64,000 bases of DNA from NCBI GenBank assembly GCA_016192995.1, contig JACPTB010000006.1, positions 5,687 through 69,686 on the forward strand, written 5' to 3'. Shown here piece after piece: positions 3,074 through 59,740 of the stretch. Under the pieces are notes generated by a model, which was not told the origin of the DNA, did no database searches, and worked only from the letters and a program-made list of their open reading frames with translations. Position 1 is the stretch's first letter. Each line of letters opens with the position of its first letter. The translations under genes and the position numbers were made by a program. Source of the stretch: Candidatus Woesearchaeota archaeon. Lineage in GTDB: Archaea > Nanobdellota > Nanobdellia > Woesearchaeales > DSVV01.

Positions 3074-3232
3074 AGAACTTTGCAAAATTATGGTTACTGC
3101 CAATTTTGTGAGCATTTTCGAAATACTTATCGAGCAATTTTCGGAGTTCCAGAGAGAAAATTGCTTTGTTAAACAGAGATCTAAATGCGAACTGGCAGTA
3201 ACCCGAGCTATGCGAGTATTTTGCAAAGTTCT
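3074..3232 (+). mobile_element. Palindromic MITE-like element, copy A (AGAACTTTGCAAAAT termini)
   Basis: Outer stem is AGAACTTTGCAAAAT / ATTTTGCAAAGTTCT. Second stem is GGTTACTGCCA / TGGCAGTAACC. Apical hairpin GCAATTTTC-GGAGTTCCAGAGA-GAAAATTGC lies at 3134-3164. It fills the whole convergent gap between aglB and the tri-domain gene. No TSD was seen. Confidence 0.75.
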
Positions 3233-3240
3233 CTGAAGAA

Positions 3241-6200
3241 TTATTGCATTCCAAGATGTTCCAAAGCAATCAATGCATCCTTCTTGACTGCGGTTGTAAG
3301 CTTTTTTCCAAGTAATTCTTGTATCTTTCTTGGATCAGTAATGCCTTTAAAATCTGCTCTTTTCATATCAATATCTTGTTCTGTCAAAATATGCCCGGCA
3401 GATAAATCATTAGTATAAATCAAGCTTTTTTGCGCCACTTTTTTCACATCTAACTCACTTTGATGAAATGTTTTTCGATAGTTGCCAGGAGCAACTTCTG
3501 CTTGTCTTTTCTCTTCTGGAGTGATGAGGAGTTGGGCAAGTTTTTCAGGTGTTTGGTGCAAGATTTTTGCGCCTTGTAAAATTCTTCGTAATTCGTCTGG
3601 TTCAGCAGAAAATCTATGGTCGGGTCCTTTGTCAAATTTATTTAAGGTAAAATGTTTCTCTATAACTGAAGCTCCCAAAGTCACAGCTTTTAAAGGTACA
3701 GCTACACCAGGAGTATGATCTGAAAAACCAGTTGGTATATGATAGGTATCATGAAGATATTTCATCGCATTAAGATTTACCATTTCTGCGGTTGTAGGAT
3801 AAGCACTGACACAGTGAAGGAGAATTAATTGTTTATTTCCCGCAGCATAAATTGATTCAACAGCTCCATGGATTTCTAGATCATTCGAATACCCAGTTGA
3901 TAAGATAATTGGTTTTCCTTTCCTTGCGACATAGGACAAAAAAGGATAGTTGGTTAGATCATCAGATCCAATCTTATAAGCATCAACGCCAATTCTTTCA
4001 AGGATTTCAACGCTTTCCTTATCTCCTCCTGGCGTAGAAATAAAGATAAGCCCTTTTGCTTCAGCATATGCTTTGAGTTCAACAAAATCTTTTTCAGTTA
4101 ATTCATACCTCTTAAACATATCATATTGTTTTTCAGTAATTTTTGTTCCATCGGCTAGTTCATAGCTATATTCAAGATTTTTATCAGAAATAAATGCTTC
4201 TGTTTTAAATGTTTGAAATTTAATGCACTCGGCTCCTAAAGCAGCTGCAGTATCAATCATTTTTTTTGCTTGCTGAACGCTTCCATTATGGTTTAAGGTT
4301 GTTTCAGGTATAATAAAACATGGTTCGCCTGGTCCAATTCTTCTTTTACCGATATAAATATGCTGTGGCATAATATCACCTTCTTTAGTCCTTGACATTT
4401 TTTCTAGTTCACTGATAACTTCTTTGATGCATGCTACTACTTGTCTAACATCTTTAACGTCCATAGTTGGAAATAAAGGCAGTGTTATAATTCGAGCAAA
4501 GATGTCTTCAGTATGAGGATAATTAAGGGGATTAACAAGTTCAGTGCTGTAAAATTTTTCTTTATAATACGTGAAGTGATAGATGGGCGTATAATGGACA
4601 TTGACCCCTATATTTCTCTCGCGCATTTTTTTGAAAAAAAGATCTCGATCTAAAAAAGGATATTTTCTAGTATTAAGAAATATGGTAAATAGATGCCATG
4701 CATGTTTGATAGTATCGGAATAGTTGGGTGTATTTATTTGAGGCACATCTTTGAAAAGTTGTTGATATTCATGTGCTAACTCAGTCCTCTTTTTAATAAA
4801 TAATTCTAATTTATTAAGTTGTGAAATTCCCAATGCTGCCTGAAAATCAGTAATGCGATAATTTCTTCCTAAAGCAACATGGTCGTACTGCCAGGAAGAA
4901 TCTTTACTGCATCGTTCGCGTGTCTCTTTAGTAATACCATGATTTCTCAGAATTTTTAATTGTTTATGCCATTGTTCATTGTTAGTGGTTATAGCGCCGC
5001 CTTCACCAGTAGTAATATGTTTAACAGGGTGAAAGCTGAATATCGTCAAATCAGCAGCGGTTCCTACGTTTCTCTTTCCTAAGTTGTCGTAAGATGCGCC
5101 CAAAGCATGTGCAGCATCTTCAACTAAATAAAGATTATATTTTCGCGCAATTTCTTTGAGCTGATCAAAAGCAGCAGGATAACCTGCAAAATCAACATAG
5201 AGTATGGCTTTTGTGTTTGGAGTTATTTTCGCTTCAATTTTATTGACGTCAATAGTTAATGTTTCTGGAGAGATGTCTACAAATACAGGTTTGCATTTGT
5301 TATAAATAATGCTATTTGCTGTTGCAACAAAAGTAAAGGGCGTTGTTATAATCTCAGAATCTTCAGGCAAATCAAGAGCTTGGAGGGCTAATTCAAGCGC
5401 AGCTGTTCCAGAATTAACAGCTACTGCATAAGTACATCCAATAGTAGAACACAACGCTTTTTCGAATTCCTCAATTTTTGGTCCAGTTGTTATCCATGAT
5501 GATCGTAAAACTTCAGTAACTGCTGTTATGTCATCTTCTTCAATACAATGACGACCATAGGGTAAGAGTGAGGTAAATCGAGTGTAAGAAGAGGAAGGGC
5601 TCTTTTGATTTCTATCGTTTATATTTAATTCCATACAACTTTGATCTTTAATCCATGCTTCAGTTTTTTTAATACCATCTGTTAATGATGTTTTTGGTTC
5701 CCAATTAAGAAGAGTATGTGCTTTGGTATAGTTGCAAACAAGTTTCATGATTTCAGCTTGGGGGTGATGATGAGGAATATGTTTTATTTTTGATGGAACT
5801 GGTTCAATGGAAGCTGCAAGTTCATTAATCCTTATATCCTTGCCAGTACCTGCGTTTAATATTTGTCCAACAGCTTTTTGTGAAAAAGCAGCTTTTACAA
5901 TAAACTCAGCACAGTCTTCAACATAGAGTAAATCCCTTGTTTGTTCGCCGCTGCCAAAAATATTAAGGTCATGTCCTCGGACATGACTGCTAATAAAAAT
6001 GCTTACAACTCCTCCTTCAAGATTTGTTTTTTGAAATGGACCATAGGTATTGAATGGTCGTAAAATAACAACGGGCAATCCTAATCCATAATAATAAGAT
6101 AATGCTAGTTGTTCTCCTGCTAATTTAGTTCCTGCATATGGCGAGGCAGGTTTTACAGGATGTTCCTCAGTAATGCCTTTACCTATCTCTTCAGGAGCAA

Positions 6201-6597
6201 CAGTGTCATACACCATGCAGGTGCTGATAAAAACAAACGTAGTTTTTTGTTTCATGCAACCTTCTAATAAATTATACGTTCCAAGGATATTGCTATTAAA
6301 ACTCTTTTTGGTGTTATCCAAACTATTTTGCACTTCTATTTGCGCAGCTAAATGAATGCAAACATCAAAATTATTTTCGAATAATTTTGATGTTTGTTTA
6401 TAATCAACAATATCTCCTTGAATTAAACCTTTGAAAAGGGAGTGATTATTAAATTCAGCGAGGTTTTCAGCAGAGCTATTGCTCAGATTATCAATAACCC
6501 AAACAGTATGATTTTCTTGAAGCAGCTTTTTAACTACAGCTCTTCCAATAAATCCAGCTCCGCCAGTTACAAGCACATTCATATACTGAAGGAACAA
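3241..6597 (-). CDS. Tri-domain fusion: extended SDR epimerase/dehydratase + DegT/PseC-type PLP aminotransferase + NeuB/PseI/LegI-type nonulosonate synthase with SAF domain
   Basis: Uninterrupted 1118-aa ORF. Residues ~6-330 carry GGAGFIG and YAGTK. Residues ~345-735 carry LPYGRHCIEEDD and SFHPVKHITTGEGG. Residues ~750-1118 carry KFQTFK, GFSDHTPG and EKHFTL..GPDH, with a SAF-like C-terminus. An alternative start (M6) lies at 6582. Confidence 0.85.
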   Translation of the reverse strand: MFLQYMNVLVTGGAGFIGRAVVKKLLQENHTVWVIDNLSNSSAENLAEFNNHSLFKGLIQGDIVDYKQTSKLFENNFDVCIHLAAQIEVQNSLDNTKKSFNSNILGTYNLLEGCMKQKTTFVFISTCMVYDTVAPEEIGKGITEEHPVKPASPYAGTKLAGEQLALSYYYGLGLPVVILRPFNTYGPFQKTNLEGGVVSIFISSHVRGHDLNIFGSGEQTRDLLYVEDCAEFIVKAAFSQKAVGQILNAGTGKDIRINELAASIEPVPSKIKHIPHHHPQAEIMKLVCNYTKAHTLLNWEPKTSLTDGIKKTEAWIKDQSCMELNINDRNQKSPSSSYTRFTSLLPYGRHCIEEDDITAVTEVLRSSWITTGPKIEEFEKALCSTIGCTYAVAVNSGTAALELALQALDLPEDSEIITTPFTFVATANSIIYNKCKPVFVDISPETLTIDVNKIEAKITPNTKAILYVDFAGYPAAFDQLKEIARKYNLYLVEDAAHALGASYDNLGKRNVGTAADLTIFSFHPVKHITTGEGGAITTNNEQWHKQLKILRNHGITKETRERCSKDSSWQYDHVALGRNYRITDFQAALGISQLNKLELFIKKRTELAHEYQQLFKDVPQINTPNYSDTIKHAWHLFTIFLNTRKYPFLDRDLFFKKMRERNIGVNVHYTPIYHFTYYKEKFYSTELVNPLNYPHTEDIFARIITLPLFPTMDVKDVRQVVACIKEVISELEKMSRTKEGDIMPQHIYIGKRRIGPGEPCFIIPETTLNHNGSVQQAKKMIDTAAALGAECIKFQTFKTEAFISDKNLEYSYELADGTKITEKQYDMFKRYELTEKDFVELKAYAEAKGLIFISTPGGDKESVEILERIGVDAYKIGSDDLTNYPFLSYVARKGKPIILSTGYSNDLEIHGAVESIYAAGNKQLILLHCVSAYPTTAEMVNLNAMKYLHDTYHIPTGFSDHTPGVAVPLKAVTLGASVIEKHFTLNKFDKGPDHRFSAEPDELRRILQGAKILHQTPEKLAQLLITPEEKRQAEVAPGNYRKTFHQSELDVKKVAQKSLIYTNDLSAGHILTEQDIDMKRADFKGITDPRKIQELLGKKLTTAVKKDALIALEHLGMQ

Positions 6598-6626
6598 GAA
6601 ACTATTCTTAAATCTTTCTTAATCAT

Positions 6627-6868
6627 GTACGTAATAAGTCTGGGGTTTTAGCGCCTACTTTTGTGAAGCTCCTCGATATCTTTATTAGGGATTTTTCGGG
6701 GTTCCTTGCCGATAGGCAAGTCTTATAATCCCAGACGCAAGCCAACTTATGAATCCTTGATTTATATTATTGAGGGAGTCGGGATTATATTTATAGAGAG
6801 AAAAATCCAATTGATGTACGCTTCCAAAGCTGAACCGGCGCTAAAACCATAGAGGACTTATTACGTAC
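6627..6868 (+). mobile_element. Palindromic MITE-like element, copy B (GTACGTAATAAGTCT termini) carrying a nested 89-nt insertion
   Basis: Termini, second stem GGTTTTAGCGCC/GGCGCTAAAACC and apical stem GGATTTTTC/GAAAAATCC match copies D, F and G. The conserved loop is split between ..GGTTCC and AGAGAG... It abuts the stop codon of the gene at 6869. Confidence 0.8.
6706..6794 (+). other. Structured 89-nt insert inside the apical loop of copy B
   Basis: Absent from D, F and G at the homologous position. It contains hairpin TTGCC-GATA-GGCAA and the imperfect stem ATAATCCCAGAC / GTCGGGATTAT. Confidence 0.65.
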
Positions 6869-7912: not shown

Positions 7913-7982
7913 CTTTTGTAATTAACTTTTCACAACTAAACAATGGGAACTATCTGTTTATTTATAAAGGTTCTCAACAAGT

Positions 7983-8146
7983 GGCGATATTGAAAAGCTT
8001 ATGTTGCCATCAATATCGCGAAGCTTATCACCTAAAAATATTGAGTACTTTTCGGAGTGCCAGAGAGAAAAGTACTATCTATAAACTACGCCAAAGCTGA
8101 GCCGATGGCAACCTTTGCTTTGCAAAGAGAGCTTTTCAATATCGCC
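7983..8146 (+). mobile_element. Palindromic MITE-like element, copy C (GGCGATATTGAAAAGCT termini)
   Basis: Outer stem is GGCGATATTGAAAAGCT / AGCTTTTCAATATCGCC. Second stem is GTTGCCATC / GATGGCAAC. Apical hairpin is GTACTTTTC-GGAGTGCCAGAGA-GAAAAGTAC. A perfect 8-bp direct repeat CAACAAGT flanks it at 7975-7982 and 8147-8154. Confidence 0.85.
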
Positions 8147-11286: not shown

Positions 11287-11330
11287 GACCTATAAAAGTG
11301 GCTTCTTATTTATAAAATTATAACTGAAGA

Positions 11331-11483
11331 GTACGTAATAAGTCTGGGGTTTTAGTGCCTATTTCGTGAAGCTCTTCTTAGTCAACATCGGGGATTTTTC
11401 GGAGTGCCAGAAAGAAAAATCCAATGTTAAATAACCTTTTGAAGCTGAACTGGCACTAAAACCATAGAAGACTTATTACGTAC
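11331..11483 (+). mobile_element. Palindromic MITE-like element, copy D (GTACGTAATAAGTCT termini)
   Basis: Same architecture as F and G. Its second stem carries a compensatory change, GTTTTAGTGCC / GGCACTAAAAC. The loop is GGAGTGCCAGAAA. Flanking 8-bp repeats are ACTGAAGA (11323-11330) and ACTGAAAA (11484-11491). An extra right-end fragment AAGACTTATTAC lies at 11491-11502. Confidence 0.8.
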
Positions 11484-11498
11484 ACTGAAAAAGACTTA

Positions 11499-12449
11499 TT
11501 ACCTATCATAAGCTGTTTTAGATGTTCTGGATTTAGGATGAGTATCTATTGTTTTTTCTTCACCGCAGCTATACAGCGTTTCACTGTATTGTTTCATAAA
11601 ACTATGAAAACCATAAAAATATTGATAAAAAAAGCTAATCAACACAAGTATAGGAAACGTTAACGCATAAAATAAAAGCAATGGTTTAAAGCTTCCAAAC
11701 AAAGCAGATATTAAAATAAAAAAATTAATAGTATTAAAATAAAACAGTGTTGAGATAGTCTTAAAAATAATACTTCCGCATTTTTTTATAAATGGTTGAT
11801 GATCACTATATACATTTGTTTTTGTTTTCTTAGTAGAGGAAGGAGTTTTATACAAAAATCCAAAACTTAATCCTGCTTTATACAATTGTTCAAAGCTTGG
11901 TTTTTTAGGTAAGTGATATTTTTCATATAATGCTGGGATTGTTTTCACCTTGATAAGTTCTTGAACAAGGCAGCTGTATTTTAACATTAAAAATGAATTA
12001 TACACCAGGATAGATGAAAAAATAATAATTCCCGCTAAAAAAAGCAGAGGTGAATTAGGTGAATCATATCTGACAAAAGCATTATATCCTAATCCGAGAA
12101 AAACAGTCACTCTAATGATGTTTGTTCCCATGCCATCAAGATACCCTCCCCGCTGGGAAGATAAATTTCTAAAACGTGCAATTTCTCCATCAACACAGTC
12201 AATAGTAAACCATAACTGCAGGAGAATTGCTCCAATAATATTCAGCGTGTAATCAGGAAATGCAAGAAATACGCTTGCAAGAATGCCAGTAAAAATCTCA
12301 GCAAAAGTGACTTGGTTAGGTGTTACTGATGTGTGGACTAACACCCACGTAATATAGCGAGAAATCCTTCGGTAATAATAATACATAAAAAACGACTGTT
12401 TTTCTTTAGGGAGCTGAGTTCGTTCAACAACTTCTCGCAAGCTTATCAT
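11499..12449 (-). CDS. CDP-alcohol phosphatidyltransferase family membrane protein
   Basis: Motif DCVDGEIAR...GGYLDGMGTN (D-G-x2-A-R..G..D) plus multiple TM segments. The start is chosen at MISLREV. In-frame upstream ATGs at 12497 and 12569 are possible, but they run into the divergent promoter and neighbouring gene. Confidence 0.7.
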   Translation of the reverse strand: MISLREVVERTQLPKEKQSFFMYYYYRRISRYITWVLVHTSVTPNQVTFAEIFTGILASVFLAFPDYTLNIIGAILLQLWFTIDCVDGEIARFRNLSSQRGGYLDGMGTNIIRVTVFLGLGYNAFVRYDSPNSPLLFLAGIIIFSSILVYNSFLMLKYSCLVQELIKVKTIPALYEKYHLPKKPSFEQLYKAGLSFGFLYKTPSSTKKTKTNVYSDHQPFIKKCGSIIFKTISTLFYFNTINFFILISALFGSFKPLLLFYALTFPILVLISFFYQYFYGFHSFMKQYSETLYSCGEEKTIDTHPKSRTSKTAYDR

Positions 12450-12532
12450 TTTAATGGAAATTAAAGGTGAGTTTAAATATTTTCTTAAACTAAACATATA
12501 TAAATCAATCAAATATTCGATAAGCGTATAAC

Positions 12533-13231: not shown

Positions 13232-13236
13232 ATTTT

Positions 13237-15063: not shown

Positions 15064-16836
15064 ATGAGTGAAGATATAAAACAAGATGCATCTGCTATAA
15101 CATGGAATAAAAAGTATTCTTTCTTGCTTCTTTTGTTGATACCAATTATCTTGAGCATGTATCTTAGGGTCATGCCTGCTTATTTACCATTTATTGATGA
15201 AAAAGCTGAAGACGATGTTCTGTTAGGGTTGAAAAACCAAATCTCGAAAGCAGTGGATAAACAATACTCTTCTCTGCCTCAAGAAAATAAAGACGTATTG
15301 ATCAAAAAACAATATGATGAATATCTTAAACAACACCAGAGTGAAATTGATCAAGTTATTTATCAACAATCAAAGAAATACAAAGATAATTTTCAGGATG
15401 ATACTGGGCATACCTATCTATTAGAGGTAGATCCTTGGCATTGGTATAGGCTTGCAAGAAATTATATTGATCATGGTTATGATCGTAATGTAGCATATGA
15501 AGGAAAATATTATGATACCTATATATCCGCAGGTTTGCCATTAGTGCTCTTGTTTGGAATAACAGTGAGTACTATCTATAAATTATTTGTTCCAGGACTG
15601 ATTTCTTTTTCAAAAGAGAAGTTCTTTCTTTCTGAAATAGTTACCAAGGTTTTAGTCGTTATTATTTTTTTGGTATTATTGTTGATATTATTAATCCACC
15701 CATTTAAACAAACGTCTGTAACTATCCACTCTGAGACAAAAGCTATTTTGGTAAACGATCAATGGTACAACATTCTTGTCAACATCAAAGATAAGTCTGC
15801 TCCTGATGCAATTATTACTTCGTGGTGGGATTTTGGGCATTTTTTTAAAGCAATTGGTGATCGAGCTACAACGTTAGATGGGGGAAATCAGAATTCTCCA
15901 CAAGCGCATTGGATAGGAAAACTATTATTAACTGATAATGAAAAAGAAAGTGTTGGTATTTTACGAATGCTTGCGTGTGGTGCGACAGTAGCATTTGATG
16001 AGTTAGAGCAACTATTTAACCATGATCAAGTCAAAACTAAAAAAGTTGTTGATCATATTATTTTATTATCAAAGAATGAGGCGAAGAAGTACCTCCTTCA
16101 ACAAGATTTATCTGAACAACAAGCTGAACATATTCTGCAATACACCCATTGCCAGCCGCCAGAAAATTATCTTATCGTCAGTTCCGATATGATTCCTAAA
16201 TCATCATCTTGGGCGCATTTTGGCAGCTGGAACTTCTCACGCGCTCAAGTAATCTATTTAACGAATAAGAACATGAAAGAAGAAGCTGTCACCTTTATGC
16301 GAGAGGATATGGCACTTACGAAAGAACAAGCTGAAGAAACTTATACACAAATAAAATCGTATAGCTCTGGTGATAAAGCTACTGCATGGATCGCTCCATG
16401 GTACAGTTATAGGCCGCTCCTTAATCTTTGTAAAAAAATAGATAATAATTTTGTTTGTCTGGATGCTTTGATGGTAAATCTCACTGAACATCAAGTGTAT
16501 AAACCAAAAATAAATGGCGATAAAGTATATTCTATAATTAGTTCATTTATAGATGAAGATGGTAACTACACTGTGGAGAATTTAGAATACTCAAATAAAA
16601 CATTTTTTACAACAAAAGAAGATGAGATGCTTGGTGTTTCAATATACCTGGATCGAAATAGGAACTACTACAATTTTTATATGGATCCAATACTGGTAAA
16701 TAGCATGTTTAATAAGATGATGCTTTTTAGTGATCATATTCATTTTAAGTGTTTTGATTTATTTGATAATACGGGATCTATCTCAGAGCAAAATAAAATA
16801 CAAGTATGGAAAGTAGACTGGAATTGCACATCTTAA
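15064..16836 (+). CDS. aglB: AglB/STT3 paralogue 2 lacking the membrane core (TM1 + EL1 start fused to the last TM + C-terminal WWDFG domain)
   Basis: 590 aa. Residues 1-160 and ~161-590 align closely with the N-terminal ~200 aa and C-terminal ~400 aa of the 54456-57521 paralogue. The junction is ..YISAGLPL|VLLFGI.. near 15543/15544. GxxDxDxY and TIXE-like motifs are absent; TSWWDFGHFF is retained. Confidence 0.8.
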   Translation: MSEDIKQDASAITWNKKYSFLLLLLIPIILSMYLRVMPAYLPFIDEKAEDDVLLGLKNQISKAVDKQYSSLPQENKDVLIKKQYDEYLKQHQSEIDQVIYQQSKKYKDNFQDDTGHTYLLEVDPWHWYRLARNYIDHGYDRNVAYEGKYYDTYISAGLPLVLLFGITVSTIYKLFVPGLISFSKEKFFLSEIVTKVLVVIIFLVLLLILLIHPFKQTSVTIHSETKAILVNDQWYNILVNIKDKSAPDAIITSWWDFGHFFKAIGDRATTLDGGNQNSPQAHWIGKLLLTDNEKESVGILRMLACGATVAFDELEQLFNHDQVKTKKVVDHIILLSKNEAKKYLLQQDLSEQQAEHILQYTHCQPPENYLIVSSDMIPKSSSWAHFGSWNFSRAQVIYLTNKNMKEEAVTFMREDMALTKEQAEETYTQIKSYSSGDKATAWIAPWYSYRPLLNLCKKIDNNFVCLDALMVNLTEHQVYKPKINGDKVYSIISSFIDEDGNYTVENLEYSNKTFFTTKEDEMLGVSIYLDRNRNYYNFYMDPILVNSMFNKMMLFSDHIHFKCFDLFDNTGSISEQNKIQVWKVDWNCTS

Positions 16837-19941: not shown

Positions 19942-20103
19942 GGCTCTGTAGAAAATGTAGTTTTTGGCATCTTTTGGTGAGGCTCTTCACGTTTATATGT
20001 GGGGATTTTTCGGAGTGCCAGAGAGAAAAATCCAATAAAATATACTCTTTAACAGCCGAACTGATGCCAAAACCGAGGCTATGCCGAGATTTTCTACAGA
20101 GCC
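19942..20103 (+). mobile_element. Palindromic MITE-like element, copy E (GGCTCTGTAGAAAAT termini)
   Basis: Outer stem is GGCTCTGTAGAAAAT / ATTTTCTACAGAGCC. Second stem is GTTTTTGGCATC / GATGCCAAAAC. Apical hairpin GGATTTTTC-GGAGTGCCAGAGA-GAAAAATCC lies at 20003-20033. The right-arm bulge is CGAGGCTATGCCGAG. It sits in a divergent promoter gap. No TSD was seen. Confidence 0.8.
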
Positions 20104-21698: not shown

Positions 21699-21707
21699 GC
21701 TTTTTTA

Positions 21708-21861
21708 GTACGTAATAAGTCTGGGGTTTTAGCGCCTACTTTTGTGAAGCTCTTCTTAAATTCACTTTGGGGATTTTTCGGAGTTCCAGAGAGAAAAATC
21801 CAATTGATATATGCTTGAAAAGCTGAACCGGCGCTAAAACCATAGAAGACTTATTACGTAC
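21708..21861 (+). mobile_element. Palindromic MITE-like element, copy F (GTACGTAATAAGTCT termini)
   Basis: Complete architecture with loop GGAGTTCCAGAGA. A perfect 8-bp direct repeat CTTTTTTA flanks it at 21700-21707 and 21862-21869. Its right terminus supplies the stop codon (21854-21856) of the convergent GT4 gene. Confidence 0.85.
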
Positions 21862-23005
21862 CTTTTTTAAGAACTTTATTATACACACCAATATATTTTT
21901 CTATGATCTTTTTCCAGTCATATTCTTTCTCAACATTTTGCTGAATAGCTTTTCCTAAATTAAGGCGTAATGATCTAATTCTTAAACGAAGAATTCTATT
22001 CGCAATTTGTTCAGGTTCATCTTTAACAACAAAACCATTTTTGCCATTTTCAACAATATCATTGACTATGCCGACGGGCGTGCAAACTAATGCTAATCCA
22101 GATGCACCAGCCTCAAGAATAGTTTGTCCAAAATTTTCAGATAATGAAGTATAAACAAATATATCAGCTTTTTTGTATTCATCAATTAATTCTTTGCCAT
22201 ATTTAAGTCCAGCAAACGTAATGTTCTCACCTACATCAAGCTCCTTAACGAGTTCTTTCATTTCATCAAGATAGCCAGGTTTATCAGTTGCGCTGTTAAC
22301 AATTTCTTCTCCAACAATCCGAAGAACAATAGCTTCTTTCTTCAATAAAGACATAGCTCTAATCAATGGTGCAATATTTCTATTTCTTGATATTCTCCCA
22401 ACAAACAGCAGGGTCAATATTTTATTTTTTCTTTTAGTTCTATCAACATAATATTGTTGTGCATCAATTCCCATAGGAATAACCTGTATTTTATCTTCAG
22501 CAACGCCATACTTTAGTGCTTCTTTTTTTTCGAAATGCGATGAAACAATAACAGCATCTGCTTTTTTTGCTACCATTTTCATAGTCAGGACATCATATAA
22601 TCTATACGGCAGTTTAACCCAACTATTTTTCAAATATTTGTCATACCCTAACAACCCACCATGGGTATTCAGCACAAAGGGTTTTCTCAATAATTTTGCC
22701 ATAACAAAGCTGAGATCTGTTTGAAAACTTCTATAATTATGAGCATGAATAATATCAGTGTTCTTAAACACAGATATCATGCTCGGTGTTATAATATATT
22801 GTAAAAATCTAAACCATGGTTTGCATCGTTCAACAGAAACCCCTTTATAATGTTCACATTCAGGAGCATCTTTCGCTTTAAAGGTGGTTGTTGTAATAGG
22901 AGAATGTATTCCTTGTTGTTCAAGTCTAAGAGAAATTTGATAAGCTTGATTAACAGGACCTGTTACATTTGGATAAAATGTTTCAATAACCCTTATAACC
23001 TTCAT
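21854..23005 (-). CDS. GT4-family glycosyltransferase
   Basis: 383 aa. Motifs seen: GRISRNRNI and TSLSENFGQTILEAGASGLALV. Confidence 0.8.
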   Translation of the reverse strand: MKVIRVIETFYPNVTGPVNQAYQISLRLEQQGIHSPITTTTFKAKDAPECEHYKGVSVERCKPWFRFLQYIITPSMISVFKNTDIIHAHNYRSFQTDLSFVMAKLLRKPFVLNTHGGLLGYDKYLKNSWVKLPYRLYDVLTMKMVAKKADAVIVSSHFEKKEALKYGVAEDKIQVIPMGIDAQQYYVDRTKRKNKILTLLFVGRISRNRNIAPLIRAMSLLKKEAIVLRIVGEEIVNSATDKPGYLDEMKELVKELDVGENITFAGLKYGKELIDEYKKADIFVYTSLSENFGQTILEAGASGLALVCTPVGIVNDIVENGKNGFVVKDEPEQIANRILRLRIRSLRLNLGKAIQQNVEKEYDWKKIIEKYIGVYNKVLKKGT

Positions 23006-25071: not shown

Positions 25072-26091
25072 ATGGCATCAAAGCAACCATTAGTTTCAAT
25101 AGTAATTCCTTCTTACAACGCTCATAAAAAAATAGCAAGTGTTTTAGATGCTATTATCGCAAATAACTATCCACATTTAGAAGTGATAGTCATAGATGAT
25201 AATTCTGCTGACCATACCTTAGAAATCGTTGAAACCTACCAGCATAAACTCTCTATTAAAATTATCAAAAAACCAAAATCAATGAAAAAAGGAGCTGCAA
25301 TAAGCACAAATCTAGGGATCAAAAAAGCAAAAGGTGAGATTGTTTGTTCTATTGATAGTGATGCTGTTATTTCTAATAATTGGATTAAAGAAGTAGTTAA
25401 GCAATTCAGAACAAACAGGAAATTAGGCGCAGTTGCAGGTTATATTTATACCGGCAACAAAGAAAATCTCTGGGCTAATTTCATGGGCGCTGAATTAGAA
25501 GATCGTTATGATAACATAACCAGCGATTATGTAGAACATATTAGTACGTGTAACACTGCTTATCGGAAAAAAGCATTAGAAGAAGTTGGTTTATTTGATG
25601 AAAAATTCTATTATGGTTATGATGTTGATCTTAGCTACAAACTAAGAAAAAAAGGCTATCAGTTAAAACTGCTTAAAACAATCTCTTGTGAACATTATTG
25701 GAAAGAAACATTAGGGGGATATTTAAAACAACAATATGATGTAGCATATGCGCGTTTACAGCTTCTTAATAAATATCCGCAAAAAAAAACAGGCGACGAT
25801 GTAGCAAATTGGTTTATGTTCATGCAAGTGCCTTTAACAGGATTATTTTATGCATTTTTAGGCTTAGGGCTGCTTTTCTATCTAACATTTGGAGCAACTA
25901 CTTCAAGCATACTTATGAAAATCAGCCTTATTCCTCTTGCATTTCTCATGTTATTAGAAATACCTCAAACATTAAGAATCCTTATTAAGCGTGAAGACGT
26001 ATCATTTATACTATTTCCTCTATTTATTCTTCTTAGAAACACTGCGTGGTGTTACGCAGCAGCAAGGTATGTGATGAAGCTAGTATTTTAG
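25072..26091 (+). CDS. GT2-family glycosyltransferase with C-terminal TM segments
   Basis: 339 aa. Motifs seen: SIVIPSYNA, VIVIDDNSAD and DSDAV. Confidence 0.8.
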   Translation: MASKQPLVSIVIPSYNAHKKIASVLDAIIANNYPHLEVIVIDDNSADHTLEIVETYQHKLSIKIIKKPKSMKKGAAISTNLGIKKAKGEIVCSIDSDAVISNNWIKEVVKQFRTNRKLGAVAGYIYTGNKENLWANFMGAELEDRYDNITSDYVEHISTCNTAYRKKALEEVGLFDEKFYYGYDVDLSYKLRKKGYQLKLLKTISCEHYWKETLGGYLKQQYDVAYARLQLLNKYPQKKTGDDVANWFMFMQVPLTGLFYAFLGLGLLFYLTFGATTSSILMKISLIPLAFLMLLEIPQTLRILIKREDVSFILFPLFILLRNTAWCYAAARYVMKLVF

Positions 26092-26244
26092 GTACGTAAT
26101 AAGTCTGGGGTTTTAGCGCCTACTTTTGTGAAGCTTTTCTATCTTTACGTTGAGGATTTTTCGGAGTTCCAGAGAGAAAAATCCAATATTTAAATCACTT
26201 TGGAGCTGAACCGGCGCTAAAACCATAGAAGACTTATTACGTAC
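26092..26244 (+). mobile_element. Palindromic MITE-like element, copy G (GTACGTAATAAGTCT termini)
   Basis: Starts at the nucleotide after the TAG stop of the GT2 gene. The architecture is complete, with loop GGAGTTCCAGAGA. There is no clean TSD. Confidence 0.8.
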
Positions 26245-26432
26245 TAATTTGTGGACAATACTTTATTCATGATACCTCCCTTATATCATCGAAGAATATG
26301 ACCTTATCCATGTAATTATTTAATATTATTAATGGCTATAAAGTTGATTTTATCAATTTTAAACGCTTATAACCTAAATCTAAATATTTAAATAACTATG
26401 CTGTTTTATGCCTTAAAACAAAGGTGATCAAT

Positions 26433-29161: not shown

Positions 29162-29846
29162 TGAACGTAAAAATATAGTTCTTTTAGTTGACGAGTTATC
29201 TCAAATTTACAATAAGCATTTGTATGCTTATTGTAAATTTGAGATAATTATTGTTGATGATAATTCCCCTGATGGTACTGGTAAAGTCATTGATGATTTA
29301 GCAAAAAAATATCAGGGTAAAAAATACCGTGTTATTGCTCTTCATCGTCAAGGAAAGCTAGGATTAGGAACTGCAGTTGTTGCAGGTTTTAAACAAGCAA
29401 AAGGCTCAATAGTTGGTGTTATGGACGCAGATCTAAGCCATCCTCCTGAAATTATTCCCAATATGATTGAACCCATTCTAAAAGGCAAAGCAGAACTTAC
29501 GGTGGGAAGTAGGTACGTTCAAGGCGGCGGTGTAGAAGTCTGGCCTTGGCATAGAAAATTAATGAGCAGAATTGCAACATTGTTGGCAAGTCCTTTAACT
29601 AAAATCCATGATCCGATGTCTGGATTGTTTTTCATTAAAAAAGATCTTCTTAAAGGAATAGACTTAGGAACTGAAGGTTATAAGATAGGTTTAGAAATAT
29701 TTGTAAAAACAAATTATAAAACTTTTGAAGAAGTGCCCTATCTCTTCAGGAATCGAGAATTTGGTCAAAGTAAGTTAAATACTAAAGAAAATATGCGTTA
29801 TCTTCAGGAATTAGGCAGATTATATTGGTATAAACGGCTCCGGTGA
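29100..29846 (+). CDS. Dolichyl-phosphate hexose synthase-like GT2 (DPM1/AglD-like)
   Basis: Motifs seen: VSVVVPTYNERKNI, IIIVDDNSPDGTG and MDADLSHPP. The first plausible ATG overlaps the previous gene by 62 nt. The last three codons plus the stop lie in element H. Confidence 0.8.
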   Translation: MPKKQLKKENCTVSVVVPTYNERKNIVLLVDELSQIYNKHLYAYCKFEIIIVDDNSPDGTGKVIDDLAKKYQGKKYRVIALHRQGKLGLGTAVVAGFKQAKGSIVGVMDADLSHPPEIIPNMIEPILKGKAELTVGSRYVQGGGVEVWPWHRKLMSRIATLLASPLTKIHDPMSGLFFIKKDLLKGIDLGTEGYKIGLEIFVKTNYKTFEEVPYLFRNREFGQSKLNTKENMRYLQELGRLYWYKRLR

Positions 29847-29997
29847 AAATGTAGTTTTTGGCATCTCTTTGTGAGGTTCTTTAATTTCATAAGTGAGGAT
29901 TTTTCAGAGTGCCAGAGAGAAAAATCCAATAAAATAAATCCATCAAAAGCCGAACTGATGCCAAAACCGAGGCTATGCCGAGATTTTCACCAGAGCC
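29836..29997 (+). mobile_element. Palindromic MITE-like element, copy H (GGCTCCGGTGAAAAT termini)
   Basis: Same subfamily as E, with compensatory outer-stem changes. The loop is AGAGTGCCAGAGA. A direct repeat TATAAAC flanks it at 29829-29835 and 29998-30004. Confidence 0.85.
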
Positions 29998-32889: not shown

Positions 32890-32947
32890 TTTATAAATCT
32901 TGTTTCGGTATGGGCTTCACAGCCCATACTAGAACAAGATTTATAAA
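32890..32947. promoter_or_regulatory. 58-nt near-perfect palindrome whose two ends are TTTATAAA boxes of a divergent gene pair
   Basis: Sequence is TTTATAAATCTTGTTTCGGTATGGGCT-TCAC-AGCCCATACTAGAACAAGATTTATAAA, with 2 mismatches. The boxes lie 24-31 nt from the ATG at 32866 (minus strand) and 42-49 nt from the ATG at 32989. Confidence 0.55.
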
Positions 32948-34057: not shown

Positions 34058-34108
34058 TAGGCTCTGCTCCGAATGTATTGCGTAGCAATACATTCGGAGC
34101 AGAGCCTA
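34058..34108. repeat. 51-nt perfect hairpin resembling the bare termini of the GGCTCTG-type element
   Basis: Sequence is TAGGCTCTGCTCCGAATGTATTGC-GTA-GCAATACATTCGGAGCAGAGCCTA. Compare the copy J terminus GGCTCTGTCCCGAATG. Confidence 0.7.
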
Positions 34109-44990: not shown

Positions 44991-45156
44991 GGCTTCGTCG
45001 AAAAATAAGGTTAGCGCCCTCAGGTCGAAACTCTTCACAGTAACGGTTTAAAGAGGTCAGAGGGACGGCTCCTTCGGAGCGTGACCGTTTATGCGATTGA
45101 AATATGCAAAGTTTCGAAGGCGCTAACCTGGCGACAGCCATTTTTTGGATGAAGCC
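44991..45156 (+). mobile_element. GC-rich 166-nt rod-like element, copy K (divergent member of the palindromic superfamily; stand-alone ncRNA not excluded)
   Basis: Five nested helices are visible: 44991-44999/45148-45156, 45009-45018/45119-45128, 45025-45031/45111-45117, 45042-45047/45084-45089 and 45068-45072/45076-45080. The terminus GGCTTCGTCGAAAAAT resembles that of E. The second stem GGTTAGCGCC/GGCGCTAACC resembles that of B, F and G. A right-arm-only bulge is present, and the core GTCAGAGGGA resembles GCCAGAGAGA. TTTTCAA occurs at 44984-44990 and 45159-45165. Confidence 0.55.
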
Positions 45157-51340: not shown

Positions 51341-51359
51341 AATAAGCTAGATTTATGGT

Positions 51360-51422
51360 TGATTTATATAGTTTATTACGATCTTGGGTATCGCCAAAGA
51401 TCGTAATAAACTATATAAATCA
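51360..51422. promoter_or_regulatory. 63-nt palindrome (26-bp perfect arms) containing the TATA boxes of a divergent gene pair
   Basis: Sequence is TGATTTATATAGTTTATTACGATCTT-GGGTATCGCCA-AAGATCGTAATAAACTATATAAATCA. The TATA-like ends lie about 23-30 nt from the ATGs at 51340 (minus strand) and 51442 (plus strand). Confidence 0.6.
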
Positions 51423-51441
51423 TTGAAAATCTCATAATTCT

Positions 51442-53412: not shown

Positions 53413-53413
53413 A

Positions 53414-54444: not shown

Positions 54445-54455
54445 CCTATATCATC

Positions 54456-57400
54456 TCAATTACTGGTATTTTTTTGACTGCAATCCCAATCAACCTTCCA
54501 TATTGCAATCTTTTGTTGTGAAGTAATTCCAGAAAATTGAAATAGATCAAAGCAGGCAAGATCCTGATTGCTGAAATAAAACATTCTATTAAACATGCTT
54601 TTTGCCAAAACGGGATCCATAAGCACGGTATAATACTTGCCATTTTCATCAATAAATAGCGATGCGCCAAACGGCTGACCGTCAGTAGTTCGTAAGAGTG
54701 TTTTATTTGAGTCTTCCATATTTTGAACAGTATACTTACCCGTAGCATCTATGAATGAACCTACGAGAGGAAATAATTTACCGCCATCAGGAGTAGGTGC
54801 GTAAAATTGGTTTTCAGTGAAGTTAACAAGTAACCCGTTTTCACAAATAATATCTTTTTCTCTTTTGATGCAAGGGACTTTATCAGATCTATAACTTGGC
54901 CAAGGAGCAATCCAGGTATTGGCTTTATCTCCTGAACCATACGGTTTTATTTGCGCATAGGTTTCCTCAGCTTGTTCTTTCGTAAGCTTCATATCTTCCT
55001 GCATAAAGGTTATAGCTTCTTCTTTCATATTCTTATTCGCTAAATAAATTACTTGAGCGCGTGAAAAATTCCAGCTGCCAAAATGCGCCCATACTCCTGC
55101 TTTTCCAATCATATCCCAGCTTACAACGAGATAATCTTCTGGTGGTTGGCAATGAGTATATTGGAGAATATGTTCAGATTGTTCTTGAGATAAGCCTTGC
55201 TGAAGCAGATAGTTTTTTGCCTCGCTTTTTGACAATAAAATAATATGGTCAATGACATTCTTGGTTTTTACTTGATCTAAATTAAACATACTCTGTGATT
55301 CATTAAACGCAGTATTTGCTCCGCAATCTAACATACGTAGTATTCCCATGCTTTCATATTCATTATCAGTGAGCAATAATTTTCCTAACCAATGCGCTTG
55401 CGGAGAATTCTGATTGCCGCCGTCAAGTGTCGTTGCCCTGTTGCCAATCGCTTTAAACCAATGTCCCATATCCCACCATGAATTAATGATTGCATCAGGA
55501 GCAGATTTTTCTCTGAGATCTACTAACAGATTATACCACTGATCATTAATGCTGGGGATCATATTTATGGACATAGTATAACCTTCTTTAAATGGTTGTA
55601 TCAAAAGGAGCAGGAATAAAATAATCAGCGCTATTTTGCTAATAATATTTGGAATGAAAAGCATATTTTTCAATACAGGCACGAGGAGGTTATAAAGAGT
55701 ATAAAGCGCAATGCCAAAACAAAGCACTAACGGCACAACAAGTAATAAGGTAAAGCGCACGCCTTTGATAGAAGCATAAAATGTAGCAAACAACCACATA
55801 ATTAAAAGGCTTGTATAAATAATATGGCTGCTGGCTTGTTGATTATGCCATGCTCCAAATGCCATCTGCAGGATAAAAGGAATAGTTAACAAAATAATAT
55901 AATAAATAACATTATCAAAATAAGCGCCATTGATTATCGTCAGATTCAACCACAACAAAAGTATGATGGTGAATGGATTTTCATGCAAAAATGTTTTATA
56001 TGTTTTATAAAGTAAAGAAATACAAATAAGAGGCACTGAGAGAAATAAGATATAAAACAAAACTTTGCTGGTGAAATATTTGTTTAACCAAAAGAGCAAA
56101 AACATCCATAGATAACTCAATACAATCATCGGTGAGTAATCTTTATAACTCTTATGACTTAAAGCAAGATATAATAAAACACCCGTAATTGCAAGAAAGA
56201 ATAAAATAGGTCCGCCGGTTAATGAAATAGCTTCTGAAATAGAAGAACTGTTTTGTTCTGCGACGGTGGTAAAGACATTAGGCCATAAGGTAGAGGTTGC
56301 TACAGCTTTAAAACGAACAAAATTAAGTGGTGCTAAAACGAGATTTAAGAAGGTAGCGGCTATTTTTGAAAAACCCATAGACATGCTTACACTAAATATT
56401 CCACCTGCAATAAATACAAAAAGCACTAATAGCTGCATTTTGATAAGATTGTAACTTTTCTTAATAGTCTCAGCCAATGCAAAGCATTGGCTGAAATGGC
56501 AGACAAGAATATACAGCAAGGTTATTAAGACAGCAGCAATAATAAAATAGAAAATATTCCACCAGCCAGACCATGCATAGCTGTATACTCCGACAAGAAG
56601 CCCGGCTCCTGCGCTAAGAAGTATTTTTGCTAATTTTTTTTCAGCATCCCACGCTTCTATGAACAGCCAAATGATCATGAGGGGGAAAAATATACTATAA
56701 CCATCAGTATCTGAAAATCCGGCAGAGGTTCTTAAAATAAGAGCTTTGTGGATCGAAAGCAGGAGTGCGGCAAAAAATCCGCCAATATTGCCGGCAAATT
56801 TTCTTCCGATAAAAAATGCAGGTATAATAAACAATGCGCCAAAAATCATAGGGACATAAAAGGCAACAGTTGTTAATGCAACAGAAGGATTAAAGAATGA
56901 AGCGATTTTATAGAAAACAATAATCATCAAAACATGAAATGTTCCTATTTTCTTAGGCGAGCTGCTCCTTTTATCTAAAGGCAGACCCGCATAAATATAA
57001 GTATCATAATATCTTCCGTTGTATTCTAAATCTCCTTCATAACCATGGTCAAGGTAGTTTTTTGCTAGCCTATACCAATGCCAAGGATCAAGTTCAAAAA
57101 GATAGGTATGTCCTGTAGCATCTTGATAGAAATCTTTATAGCTCTTTGATTGCTGATCAATAACTTGATAAATCTCCTCCTTATGCTCTTTAAGGTATTC
57201 ATCATGTTGTTTTTTGATCAATTCATCTTTATTTTGTTGGGGCAAGTTAGGATATTGCGCCTCAACAGCATTTGAAACTTGTCCTTTAAGTCCCAAAAGC
57301 ACATTTTCTTCAGCCCGTATATCAGTGAGAGGTAAATAAGCAGGCATAGTCCTAAGATAAATGCTCATCACTATAGGGATGAGCAAGAGAAGAATAAAAT

Positions 57401-57521
57401 AATGTTTTTTAATCCATTGCCAAACCTGCTGGCTTGCAAGTTTTTGCTCTTTTTGTTCTTGGTGATGTGGCTCTGAAATAGGTTGTGGAGCATGCTTATC
57501 TGATGGTAAATGATTGCTCAT
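54456..57521 (-). CDS. aglB: Oligosaccharyltransferase AglB/STT3, paralogue 3 (full length)
   Basis: Motifs seen: ELDPWHWY, AGFSDTDGY, TTVAEQ and NSWWDMGHWF. The start is taken at MSNHLPSDK, with TTTATAAA 41-48 nt upstream. The track's start at 57578 is a TTG inside a repeat fragment. Confidence 0.9.
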   Translation of the reverse strand: MSNHLPSDKHAPQPISEPHHQEQKEQKLASQQVWQWIKKHYFILLLLIPIVMSIYLRTMPAYLPLTDIRAEENVLLGLKGQVSNAVEAQYPNLPQQNKDELIKKQHDEYLKEHKEEIYQVIDQQSKSYKDFYQDATGHTYLFELDPWHWYRLAKNYLDHGYEGDLEYNGRYYDTYIYAGLPLDKRSSSPKKIGTFHVLMIIVFYKIASFFNPSVALTTVAFYVPMIFGALFIIPAFFIGRKFAGNIGGFFAALLLSIHKALILRTSAGFSDTDGYSIFFPLMIIWLFIEAWDAEKKLAKILLSAGAGLLVGVYSYAWSGWWNIFYFIIAAVLITLLYILVCHFSQCFALAETIKKSYNLIKMQLLVLFVFIAGGIFSVSMSMGFSKIAATFLNLVLAPLNFVRFKAVATSTLWPNVFTTVAEQNSSSISEAISLTGGPILFFLAITGVLLYLALSHKSYKDYSPMIVLSYLWMFLLFWLNKYFTSKVLFYILFLSVPLICISLLYKTYKTFLHENPFTIILLLWLNLTIINGAYFDNVIYYIILLTIPFILQMAFGAWHNQQASSHIIYTSLLIMWLFATFYASIKGVRFTLLLVVPLVLCFGIALYTLYNLLVPVLKNMLFIPNIISKIALIILFLLLLIQPFKEGYTMSINMIPSINDQWYNLLVDLREKSAPDAIINSWWDMGHWFKAIGNRATTLDGGNQNSPQAHWLGKLLLTDNEYESMGILRMLDCGANTAFNESQSMFNLDQVKTKNVIDHIILLSKSEAKNYLLQQGLSQEQSEHILQYTHCQPPEDYLVVSWDMIGKAGVWAHFGSWNFSRAQVIYLANKNMKEEAITFMQEDMKLTKEQAEETYAQIKPYGSGDKANTWIAPWPSYRSDKVPCIKREKDIICENGLLVNFTENQFYAPTPDGGKLFPLVGSFIDATGKYTVQNMEDSNKTLLRTTDGQPFGASLFIDENGKYYTVLMDPVLAKSMFNRMFYFSNQDLACFDLFQFSGITSQQKIAIWKVDWDCSQKNTSN

Positions 57522-57576
57522 AATGATAACACCTTCTTTCAGCAATTGGCATATAGTTTCCTTTATAAAAGTTGCC

Positions 57577-57602
57577 AAAACCTAAGAAGACTTATTACGT
57601 AC
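57577..57602 (+). mobile_element. Solo right-end fragment of the GTACG-type element
   Basis: AAAACCTAAGAAGACTTATTACGTAC matches the right terminus of D, F and G (AAAACCATAGAAGACTTATTACGTAC). No left half is present. Confidence 0.7.
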
Positions 57603-57604
57603 TT

Positions 57605-58714: not shown

Positions 58715-58759
58715 AGTAACTATGGTTATTAAGAAGTATTATTTAATTAATATGGTTTT

Positions 58760-59236: not shown

Positions 59237-59550
59237 GCAATCAACTTAAGATCTTTTTCCAATTCATCTACATCGTAATTAATTGAGATTTTATACTGCT
59301 TTAATACATCAAAGAATTCCCACGGTGAAATGCCAGCAAACACAGAAGCTTGTTCTAATGAGAATATCCCTGTTTGGTATTGTTCTAAAGCTTTTTTCAA
59401 TCTCCATTGTTTTATAGCTTCTGCTAATAATCTTCTCACTACTTCAGATTTCTCTAAATGTTCTGCTTTTGCAATCTCTTGCAGGTCATTCACAAAACTC
59501 TCTGATAACCTTGTTGTTAAGACTTCACCCATGTATTCATTGTAATACAA
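59221..59550 (-). CDS. RHH + UPF0175 antitoxin-like protein
   Basis: 109 aa. It has an RHH-like segment, LEKSEVVRRLLAEAI, and then YQTGIFSLEQASVFAGISPWEFFDVLKQYKI. Confidence 0.75.
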   Translation of the reverse strand: MYYNEYMGEVLTTRLSESFVNDLQEIAKAEHLEKSEVVRRLLAEAIKQWRLKKALEQYQTGIFSLEQASVFAGISPWEFFDVLKQYKISINYDVDELEKDLKLIAWKKQ

Positions 59551-59577
59551 TGTAATATATATGTTTTTTGTTTTTGC

Positions 59578-59740
59578 GGCTCTGTCCCGAATGAAGTTTT
59601 TGGTGCCATGCTTGTGATTATCTTAAGAATAAATAATCGAGAAAAAAGGGAATTCCAATGGGAATTTTTTCCTTCTTATCAACAAGTGGGATAATCACGG
59701 CACCAAAACCGAGACGTAAGCCGAGATTCGGGACAGAGCC
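59578..59740 (+). mobile_element. Palindromic MITE-like element, copy J (GGCTCTGTCCCGAAT termini, different apex)
   Basis: Outer stem is GGCTCTGTCCCGAAT / ATTCGGGACAGAGCC. Second stem is GTTTTTGGTGCC / GGCACCAAAAC. The right-arm bulge is CGAGACGTAAGCCGAG. The apex is GAAAAAAGGGAATTCCAATGGGAATTTTTTC. A perfect 8-bp direct repeat GTTTTTGC flanks it at 59570-59577 and 59741-59748. Confidence 0.85.

Follow-up and report, generated by a model that had tools for sequence, protein, structure and literature searches.

Ten co-oriented copies of an archaeal MITE with an asymmetric centre in a glycosylation island of a woesearchaeal genome

IS200/IS605 elements (IS608, ISDra2) and the REP/RAYT system depend on essential hairpins, are strand-specific and have an orientation that follows replication via the lagging-strand template; they lack TIRs and target duplications, insert next to a specific 4–5-nt sequence and use an HUH transposase. 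IS6-like elements are abundant in archaea, their proteins sharing only ~25% identity with bacterial counterparts, and IS6/IS26-type arrays contain internal copies without a duplication of their own, or duplications split between neighbours. In the IS6/IS26 family, TIRs follow the consensus GGTTCTGTTGCAAA (PMC6807381), insertion produces an 8-bp target duplication (PMC7986276), and MITE derivatives exist (PMC6807381; PMC7986276). Elements of this family are found "invariably as flanking direct repeats", owing to cointegrate transposition (PMC7986276). Among autonomous bacterial IS, Gomez et al. (2014) described an orientation excess relative to the replication fork that is family- and phylum-specific, strongest in Firmicutes, tied to the beta clamp and unexplained by post-insertion selection; it covers DDE elements that make target duplications, and IS6 in Firmicutes (PMC3971601).

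Here we analyzed a 64-kb stretch of a Candidatus Woesearchaeota genome, hereafter the window, which is a mosaic glycosylation (sugar-gene) island. The element repeated in it is a MITE, a non-autonomous DNA transposon of ~160 bp. Its copies are 152–167 bp long, intergenic and without an ORF, and their TIRs mostly start with GG and are 15–18 bp long and perfect in several cases. The target-site duplication measures 8 bp; among 37 elements it is perfect in 17 and matches at 7 or more of the 8 positions in 25. The sites are unrelated loci with unrelated flanks in many MAGs, assigned to Woesearchaeota/Nanoarchaeota and, in some cases, labelled Methanosarcinales; the family is widespread in DPANN archaea. 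Searches of viral contigs gave 0 matches, those of plasmid and phage collections likewise came back empty, and literature searches with strings of the element sequence returned only unrelated primer matches.

The whole element is a foldback whose arms covary: pairing holds in 95.4% of cells, compensatory changes occur in 28 of 38 pairs, and none of 500 shuffles reached the observed covariation. At its apex lies an asymmetric centre, TTTTC-GGAGTKCC-AGAGA-GAAAA, that is invariant across all end classes; a tandem GA/GA mismatch and, on the right arm only, a mini-hairpin are likewise kept, and together these features give the element a defined polarity. The asymmetry proposed in the preliminary description is thus borne out, although what was taken there for a loop is the invariant centre of a foldback running the whole length, and the supposed K variant of that loop in copy 44991 (also 59578) is an apical domain of a second type, ..GGGAATTCC..GGGA... 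Conservation is highest in the centre rather than at the ends. Loops differ strongly between copies with nearly identical stems, implying a role for the stems and the centre in propagation or function. The tandem GA is not a K-turn, as it has Watson–Crick pairs on both sides and lacks a 3-nt bulge, and guide-like use of the two variable internal loops was rejected, their identity or complementarity to the flanks being like that of shuffles (mean longest match 6.5 vs 6.38).

Compared with the structured bacterial MITEs and palindromic elements (Correia/NEMIS, ERIC, RUP, bcr1 and the Rickettsia palindromic elements), this family shares the intergenic location, a length of ~100–170 bp, TIRs, long hairpins and many copies per genome, often abutting genes. 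These bacterial MITEs differ in host, sequence and duplication (e.g., TA for Correia), and we know of none with an invariant asymmetric centre common to several end classes. IS6/IS26-derived MITEs (e.g., MITEBth2 and MITEHarch3 in ISfinder) are likewise short, without an ORF, bounded by TIRs mostly starting with GG, and flanked by an 8-bp target duplication. Judged by sequence, the duplication length and some of the ends appear to resemble the IS6/IS26 group: end classes GGCTCTGTAGAAAAT, GTGGTTGTTGCAAAAT and AGAACTTTGCAAAAT resemble GGTTCTGTTGCAAA, and in a comparison over the 14-bp TIR (G1, G2, G7) the GGCTCTGT.. and GGCTTTGT.. classes fit, whereas GGCGGCATTGAAAAG and GTACGTAATAAGTCT fall outside the consensus. 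The family further differs from IS6/IS26-derived MITEs in that its centre is the most conserved part, its arms covary over their full length and its length stays close to 153–165 bp, and in that a cognate transposase or full-length IS was not found. No autonomous element with the same ends was found across the window and ~0.45 Mb of related loci, and a TIR-motif scan gave no parent IS or transposase. A search for TIR and duplication pairs 250–3000 bp apart returned only a 317-nt relative in locus L008, and no parent; this relative folds with z = −8. A phmmer search with an IS26 transposase query found no match among six-frame ORFs of the window and related loci.

We trained a covariance model on 37 copies; run over the whole window with filters off, it found exactly ten elements, all on the + strand (Table 1). 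Loci that were also reported on − scored 10.8–28 bits there, against 57–137 bits on +; for seven copies (115–137 vs 20–28 bits) orientation is unambiguous. The GGAGTGCCAGAGA motif, allowing up to 2 mismatches, matched seven times, always on + (chance expectation 0.56), and nhmmer revealed no additional fragments in the window. The co-orientation of ten full copies reported in the preliminary description was therefore confirmed, and its estimate of about 1 in 500 agrees with our two-sided probability of 1/512, a value whose apparent significance is inflated because the run was noticed post hoc. Of its two terminal fragments said to share this orientation, the one at 57577–57602 is clearly +, as its match (AAAACC-TAAGAAG-ACTTATTACGTAC) is specific to the right arm, while the call for 11491–11502 hangs on a single base. 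The ORF list counts 14–16 gene strand switches rather than the roughly 18 given earlier. Copies lie 2–15 kb apart with genes on both strands around them. This spacing, the absence of an integrase and ends that do not fit the R''/R' core sites (RYYYAAC ... GTTRRRY) argue against integron attC sites.

Table 1. Copies, fragments and a related hairpin of the MITE family in the window (CM, covariance model).
Feature	Position	Strand	Evidence and remarks
MITE copy, TIR class AGAACTTTGCAAAAT	3074..3232 (CM match 3073-3233)	+	CM 132 bits vs 19.8 on −; between convergent genes; 15-bp perfect TIR; target duplication not recognisable
MITE copy, class GTACGTAATAAGTCT	6627..6868 (CM core 6660-6836)	+	CM 44.7 bits for core; ~90-nt structured insertion in apical loop, between GGGGTTCC and AGAGA; both halves matched on + by nhmmer; repeat families D2, D4, D6, D7
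MITE copy, class GGCGATATTGAAAAG	7983..8146	+	CM 137.3 bits vs 28.2 on −; perfect 8-bp duplication CAACAAGT
MITE copy, class GTACGTAATAAGTCT	11331..11483 (CM match 11328-11486)	+	CM 114.9 bits; duplication ACTGAAGA/ACTGAAAA, 7/8
12-nt TIR fragment AAGACTTATTAC	11491..11502	+, weakly defined (single base)	Sequence; TIR-motif match at 11506; shortly downstream of copy 11331
MITE copy, class GGCTCTGTAGAAAAT (IS6-like end)	19942..20103	+	CM 137.2 bits vs 27.6 on −; flanked by divergent genes; 87% identity to copy 29836
MITE copy, class GTACGTAATAAGTCT	21708..21861 (CM match 21707-21862)	+	CM 120.9 bits; perfect 8-bp duplication CTTTTTTA; convergent genes either side
MITE copy, class GTACGTAATAAGTCT	26092..26244 (CM match 26091-26245)	+	CM 124 bits; first base directly after stop codon; public short-read (Logan) contigs end inside element
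MITE copy, class GGCTCCGGTGAAAAT	29836..29997	+	CM 134.9 bits; duplication TATAAAC
47-nt perfect hairpin, arms GGCTCTGCTCCGAAT... like MITE end	34060..34106	no orientation (symmetric)	Inverted repeat I4
Divergent MITE copy, GGCTTCGTCGAAAAA ends, second apical type	44991..45156	+	CM 35.8 bits, nothing on −; between divergent genes
5'-truncated copy, right-arm end AAAACCTAAGAAGACTTATTACGTAC	57577..57602	+	Family D6; in 26-bp intergenic gap; 83% identity to right ends of class-A copies
MITE copy of class GGCTCTGTCCCGAAT with apical domain of second type (GGGAATTCCAATGGGAATT)	59578..59740	+	CM 56.9 bits vs 10.8 on −; 16-bp perfect TIR; perfect duplication GTTTTTGC

The ten copies are independent insertions. 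They fall into at least six end (TIR) classes, and at least six carry a duplication of their own, perfect in 7983, 21708 and 59578 and near-perfect in 11331, 29836 and 44991; copies 3074, 6627, 19942 and 26092 lack one. No left flank of a window copy matches the right flank of another. Local copy-and-paste spread, one of the explanations offered in the preliminary description, thus loses its segmental-duplication form, which the end classes, the unrelated flanks and the individual 8-bp duplications rule out as the source of the co-orientation; local transposition may still have played a part. An empty-site comparison was precluded by the divergence of the closest genome with synteny (L077), at 41–47% protein identity.

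We then considered replication. Because raw GC skew is dominated by gene direction, we used an estimate corrected for gene orientation. The + strand has a G excess of +0.037 ± 0.010 over the whole window, positive in all three thirds, and an intergenic skew of +0.068. This is the composition of a single replichore and suggests that the window lies within one, with the top strand of every element on the G-rich strand. We tentatively attribute the uniform polarity to a replication-linked insertion bias, to which we give a probability of about 40%. A DDE-type transposase supplied in trans would make a staggered cut that leaves the 8-bp duplication. Polarity would most likely be imposed at insertion by the direction in which the replication fork moves, where an asymmetric transposition complex may meet an asymmetric replisome; the top strand would then always land on the G-rich strand of the replichore. 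The same polarity is what a lagging-strand model of the IS200/IS605 or REP/RAYT kind predicts; membership in these groups is ruled out by the TIRs and the varied 8-bp duplications, the target pattern is mirror-symmetric as for double-stranded DNA, and no transposase gene (HUH included) or integrase gene was found in the window. In contrast to the replication-biased bacterial IS (PMC3971601), the element is an archaeal MITE, and the support comes from one 64-kb replichore segment of one genome.

An orientation set by replication, as the preliminary description had suggested, is consistent inside the window and was not reproduced elsewhere. Six pairs of neighbouring copies on other contigs comprise three with the same and three with opposite orientation, among the latter two strong copies only 2 kb apart (L036) and pairs in L056 and L030. 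Read in element orientation, the gene-corrected skew pooled over 44 independent loci comes to −0.0004 ± 0.007, with per-locus corrected values positive in 8 and negative in 15 cases, and raw skew positive in 18 and negative in 23. It is almost as probable, in our view, that the element inserts in either orientation with equal likelihood and that a run of 10/10 (~1 in 500) was picked out post hoc as striking from many read-throughs. Chance would also suit the mirror-symmetric flank pattern, which gives no orientation cue and fits a symmetric complex on double-stranded DNA that by itself would impart no polarity, as well as two strands that fold equally well with helices bearing no strand signature. 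Against it stand the agreement of ten full copies and a truncated eleventh from at least six end classes (p ~0.001–0.002) and the consistent strand asymmetry of the window, which is what a replication-linked model would need. Should chance account for the run, what remains is a well-defined new MITE family from a lineage known to be rich in MITEs.

Both orientations at short range in other genomes also count against selection after insertion, in which a strand-specific product or effect, such as a structured RNA from the + strand or the purging of inversion-prone inverted pairs from a dense cluster, would leave one orientation. The strand-specific function raised in the preliminary description does have a basis in conserved non-palindromic features (GGAGTKCC-AGAGA, GA/GA and the right-arm mini-hairpin), present in all classes, and selection would also accommodate loops that vary strongly on nearly identical stems and the folding of the 317-nt relative (z = −8). 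We consider it improbable, as an RNA-type signature, an Rfam match and a link to gene direction were all absent. Helix mismatches are balanced (G-T 17 vs A-C 12, p = 0.46) and folding energies are equal for the top and bottom strands; Rfam 15 gave 0 matches over the window at gathering score and, on L008 with its two elements, nothing relevant at E up to 5; a conserved internal promoter is missing; and orientation bears no relation to the way flanking genes or promoters point. Of the copies lying between tandem genes, 8 run with the genes and 10 against them, so that comparison with transcription direction, proposed earlier, gave no link. The mismatches, energies and gene contexts likewise argue against a functional RNA from one strand. 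Less probable still is assembly of the island by IS6/IS26-type transposition, with cointegrates or translocatable units bringing in gene blocks flanked by direct repeats and co-orientation as a by-product. The cointegrate mechanism of that family does yield flanking direct repeats (PMC7986276), the element is similar to it in its 8-bp duplication and its GGCTCTGT../..TTGCAAAAT ends, and the window is a mosaic island. Yet a matching duplication of 8 bp (or 7 bp) individually flanks at least six copies, with no cross-copy flank matches, the copies span at least six end classes, and an IS6-type transposase was not found in the window or related loci; the individual duplications largely refute this account, and we rejected a direct-repeat array of the IS26 type.

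A different question is what the enzyme recognizes. The invariant centre, the full-length covarying arms and the free loops suggest a mode of recognition undescribed for DDE-type MITEs. The element might even be mobilized at the replication fork in folded, single-stranded form, by an enzyme reading the apical motif and foldback geometry instead of the ends. This would explain how one small genome comes to have at least six active end classes and why the centre is more conserved than the ends, along with the fixed length and a polarity that follows the replichore. We regard it as unlikely. In contrast to every single-strand transposon known to us, such an element would leave an 8-bp target duplication.

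If the polarity is indeed set by replication, this would be the first archaeal case of fork-coupled transposition, and the first involving a MITE; to our knowledge, replication-biased orientation has been shown for neither archaea nor MITEs. The elements could then serve as replichore or origin markers in genomes of uncultured DPANN archaea, whose origins are difficult to locate.

The hairpin at 34060–34106, whose 24-nt arms match at 100% and to which the covariance model gives 21.6 bits on one strand and 21.3 on the other, is possibly an internally deleted remnant of the MITE. The family also leaves its mark on short-read assemblies of these genomes, which are broken at every copy: Logan contigs matching the region reach at most 4.3 kb and end inside elements.

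The preliminary description had held that all copies of the element in the window point the same way. The motif GGAGTGCCAGAGA, allowing up to two mismatches, occurs seven times in the window, 7/7 on the + strand (0.56 expected by chance), and inspection of these copies revealed a surrounding nested inverted repeat of ~160 nt. We built a covariance model on an alignment that combined window copies with those on public contigs, 37 distinct ones in all. A filter-free scan of the window with this model returned exactly ten elements, 10/10 on the + strand, seven of them scoring 115–137 bits. Minus-strand scores at these loci, where reported at all, were only 10.8–28 bits, so the polarity is unambiguous. 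nhmmer added no further pieces in the window, and no second co-oriented repeat family was found there. The shared orientation of the ten full copies thus holds, as does its estimated chance of about 1 in 500 (two-sided 10/10, 1/512); of the two fragments said to conform, one does and the other cannot be safely oriented, and the ~18 gene strand switches claimed become 14–16 in the ORF list.

Lower-scoring copies and fragments of the element in the window
Feature	Position	Strand	Remark
MITE copy	59578-59740	+	56.9 bits, covariance model
MITE copy	6627-6868	+	core 44.7 bits, covariance model
MITE copy	44991-45156	+	35.8 bits, covariance model
MITE fragment	57577-57602	+	specific match to right arm
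MITE fragment	11491-11502		12 nt, too short for safe orientation

All copies are intergenic, lack an ORF and measure 152–167 bp; they often begin 0–10 nt from a stop codon or sit ~45 nt away from the start of a gene. Outside their terminal inverted repeats (15–18 bp, with GG at the start in most) lie direct repeats of 8 bp that differ in sequence, such as CAACAAGT, CTTTTTTA and GTTTTTGC in the window, which are perfect in 17/37 and match at ≥7/8 positions in 25/37. Together, the duplications, the terminal repeats, the size and the lack of an ORF identify the element as a MITE. The element recalls the IS6/IS26 group in its 8-bp duplication, its GG termini and some of its ends, like GGCTCTGTAGAAAAT or GTGGTTGTTGCAAAAT. 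That group is abundant in archaea, includes known MITE derivatives, duplicates 8 bp of the target and has the consensus GGTTCTGTTGCAAA (PMC6807381; PMC7986276). Other end classes of the element depart from that consensus. Neither a transposase nor a full-length parent element was found in the window and ~0.45 Mb of related DNA, and the IS6/IS26 group is a candidate relative, not an established one.

From the outside inward, the element consists of terminal repeats (P1) of at least six sequence classes; a P2 helix of about 10–12 bp (..TGCCATC / GATGGCA..); a 2-bp helix, then a conserved tandem GA/GA followed by P3 (AGCT/AGCT or GGCT/AGCC); a large internal loop with ~17 nt per side; P4 (GCAATTTTC / GAAAATTGC); and, at the apex, 13 invariant nucleotides, GGAGTKCCAGAGA. 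The right arm alone carries a mini-hairpin (CGA-hairpin-GAG). Unusually for a MITE, the centre is better conserved than the ends across classes. In the 37-copy alignment, 95.4% of cells in the consensus structure are paired and 28/38 pairs show compensatory changes; 0/500 shuffles reached the observed pairing, and slid controls dropped to 30–45% paired. Helix mismatches comprise 17 G-T versus 12 A-C, and the top and bottom strands fold equally well. The pairing is therefore kept at the duplex level, not at that of one strand, and the polarity rests solely on the non-palindromic parts.

The internal loops (alignment columns 50–68 and 100–120) diverge strongly between copies with near-identical stems and do not match the flanks; about half of the positions in both ~17-nt loops differ within the pairs 21708/26092 in the window and L010/L025 and L012/L018 among public contigs, and a weak motif (..CACAT/ACAG..) precedes P4, with AAT after it. 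A second apical type (..GGGAATTCC..GGGA..) is carried by copies 44991 and 59578 and some public copies. The apical loop tolerates inserts: copy 6627 holds a structured one of ~90 nt (6706–6795, between GGGGTTCC and AGAGA), and a 317-nt relative on public contig L008 (4797–5113), with the same ends and its own 8-bp duplication, has GC-rich added hairpins (fold z-score −8). The apex may once have been the seat of cargo or of the parent element's gene.

Scanning public genomes and metagenomes for the exact centre TTTCRGAGTKCCAGARAGAAA yielded full elements in MAGs under a Nanoarchaeota or Woesearchaeota label, as well as in three MAG contig sets under a Methanosarcinales label; the viral contigs, plasmids and phages of the collections searched gave none. 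The near-canonical Methanosarcinales-labelled copies (L005, L010, L025 of CAYVTQ01 and L028 of CAYNCK01) lie at loci of 39–43% GC, and this distribution could reflect episymbiont–host transfer or binning contamination. Rfam held no match, and nothing in the literature matched the sequences. Density in the window is ~156/Mb; a woesearchaeal genome with 105 MITEs/Mb already figures in a published census (PMC11602168). Logan contigs of the groundwater samples SRR121134xx, from the same organism (L001–L004, L076), end 20–25 nt inside the elements from both sides; the family breaks short-read assemblies of the source genome at every copy. The closest syntenic relative of the window, a Woesearchaeota MAG with 41–47% protein identity (L077; GCA_016219865.1, JACRKF010000033.1), carries at ~5852–5975, syntenic to window copy 29836, a decayed element that the covariance model does not pick up; its start, AGAACTTTGCAAAATT, is of the same end class as window copy 3074, and its terminus reads ..CGAACGAAGTGAGAATTT. 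This synteny, together with the gene content described below, makes a Woesearchaeota-like DPANN archaeon the most likely host of the window.

The ten window copies are confirmed to be separate, independent insertions of one structured MITE family and to share their orientation unambiguously. Local segmental duplication, named beforehand as a possible source of the common orientation, is contradicted by the six or more end classes, the unrelated flanks and the individual duplications of most copies. In an IS26-type array, internal copies would lack a duplication of their own. Assembly of the island in that manner is very unlikely, as six window copies own one and no left flank equals another copy's right flank. 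Nor did transcription direction, against which a comparison had been proposed, show any link: in tandem-gene contexts, the only informative ones, pooled over the window and public loci, 8 copies are co-oriented and 10 anti-oriented. Target asymmetry also fails as a cue, because A/T-only 8-mers are mirror-symmetric outside both ends and the duplications are not polar in composition. These TATA-box-like 8-mers (for example TATTTAAAT and TATATAAAT) peak sharply 15–24 nt beyond both ends (window and L005–L075) and are largely promoters of adjacent genes; since neighbouring gene starts cluster 44–50 nt away, the insertions lie just upstream of promoters. Such placement could reflect targeting, or the intergenic regions may be so short that they offer no other neutral spot. 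Selection for a strand-specific function, also proposed earlier, is unlikely.

The replication link proposed earlier agrees with the window but gains no support from other contigs. Separating gene-direction from strand effects, with errors bootstrapped over genes, gave a corrected G excess of +0.037 ± 0.010 on the + strand. It is +0.045 at third codon positions and keeps a positive sign in every third of the window; intergenic DNA has a skew of +0.068. This composition suggests that the window belongs to a single replichore in which the top strand of the MITE coincides with the G-rich strand, by the usual rule the lagging-strand template. The arrangement is the one a fork-coupled model predicts. 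Orientation biases of bacterial IS are documented as family- and phylum-specific, DDE families included (PMC3971601). On other contigs, adjacent copies form three same-orientation pairs (L058, L026, L056 5371/13759) and three opposite ones (L030, L056 4199/5371 and L036, where two strong copies stand 2 kb from each other), six pairs still compatible with an orientation bias of ~85%. Over 44 independent loci, which are short, represent other lineages and end classes and may have weak replication skew, the corrected skew in MITE orientation was −0.0004 ± 0.007, with 8 positive and 15 negative per-locus signs. This wider evidence does not support the replication link. We tentatively favour, at a probability of roughly 0.4, a genuine bias at insertion that is linked to the direction of replication and may be specific to this lineage; chance, aided by post-hoc selection, is nearly as likely.

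The window is a glycosylation island, coding for several STT3/AglB oligosaccharyltransferases and dozens of sugar-modifying enzymes. Three STT3/AglB-like paralogues lie at 41–3064, 15064–16836 and 54456–57578, the first two sharing stretches of DNA that are ~75% identical and consistently offset by 13,772 nt. An ORF of 1118 aa (3241–6597, − strand) fuses a 4,6-dehydratase/epimerase domain, a PseC-type aminotransferase and a NeuB/PseI-type sugar synthase. A perfect hairpin with 24-nt arms (GGCTCTGCTCCGAATGTATTGC gta GCAATACATTCGGAGCAGAGCC) lies between two + genes at 34060–34106; its arms look like a GGCTCTGTCCCGAAT-class MITE end, so the hairpin could be what an internal deletion left behind, or else the product of an excision. 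Near-perfect intergenic hairpins with arms of 17–29 nt and loops of 4–5 nt occur at 6359–6396, 29196–29247, 32890–32947 and 51360–51422; they may be terminators or decayed elements, and the arm of the one at 51360–51422 (GATCGTAATAAAC..) resembles the GTACGTAATAAGTC end class.
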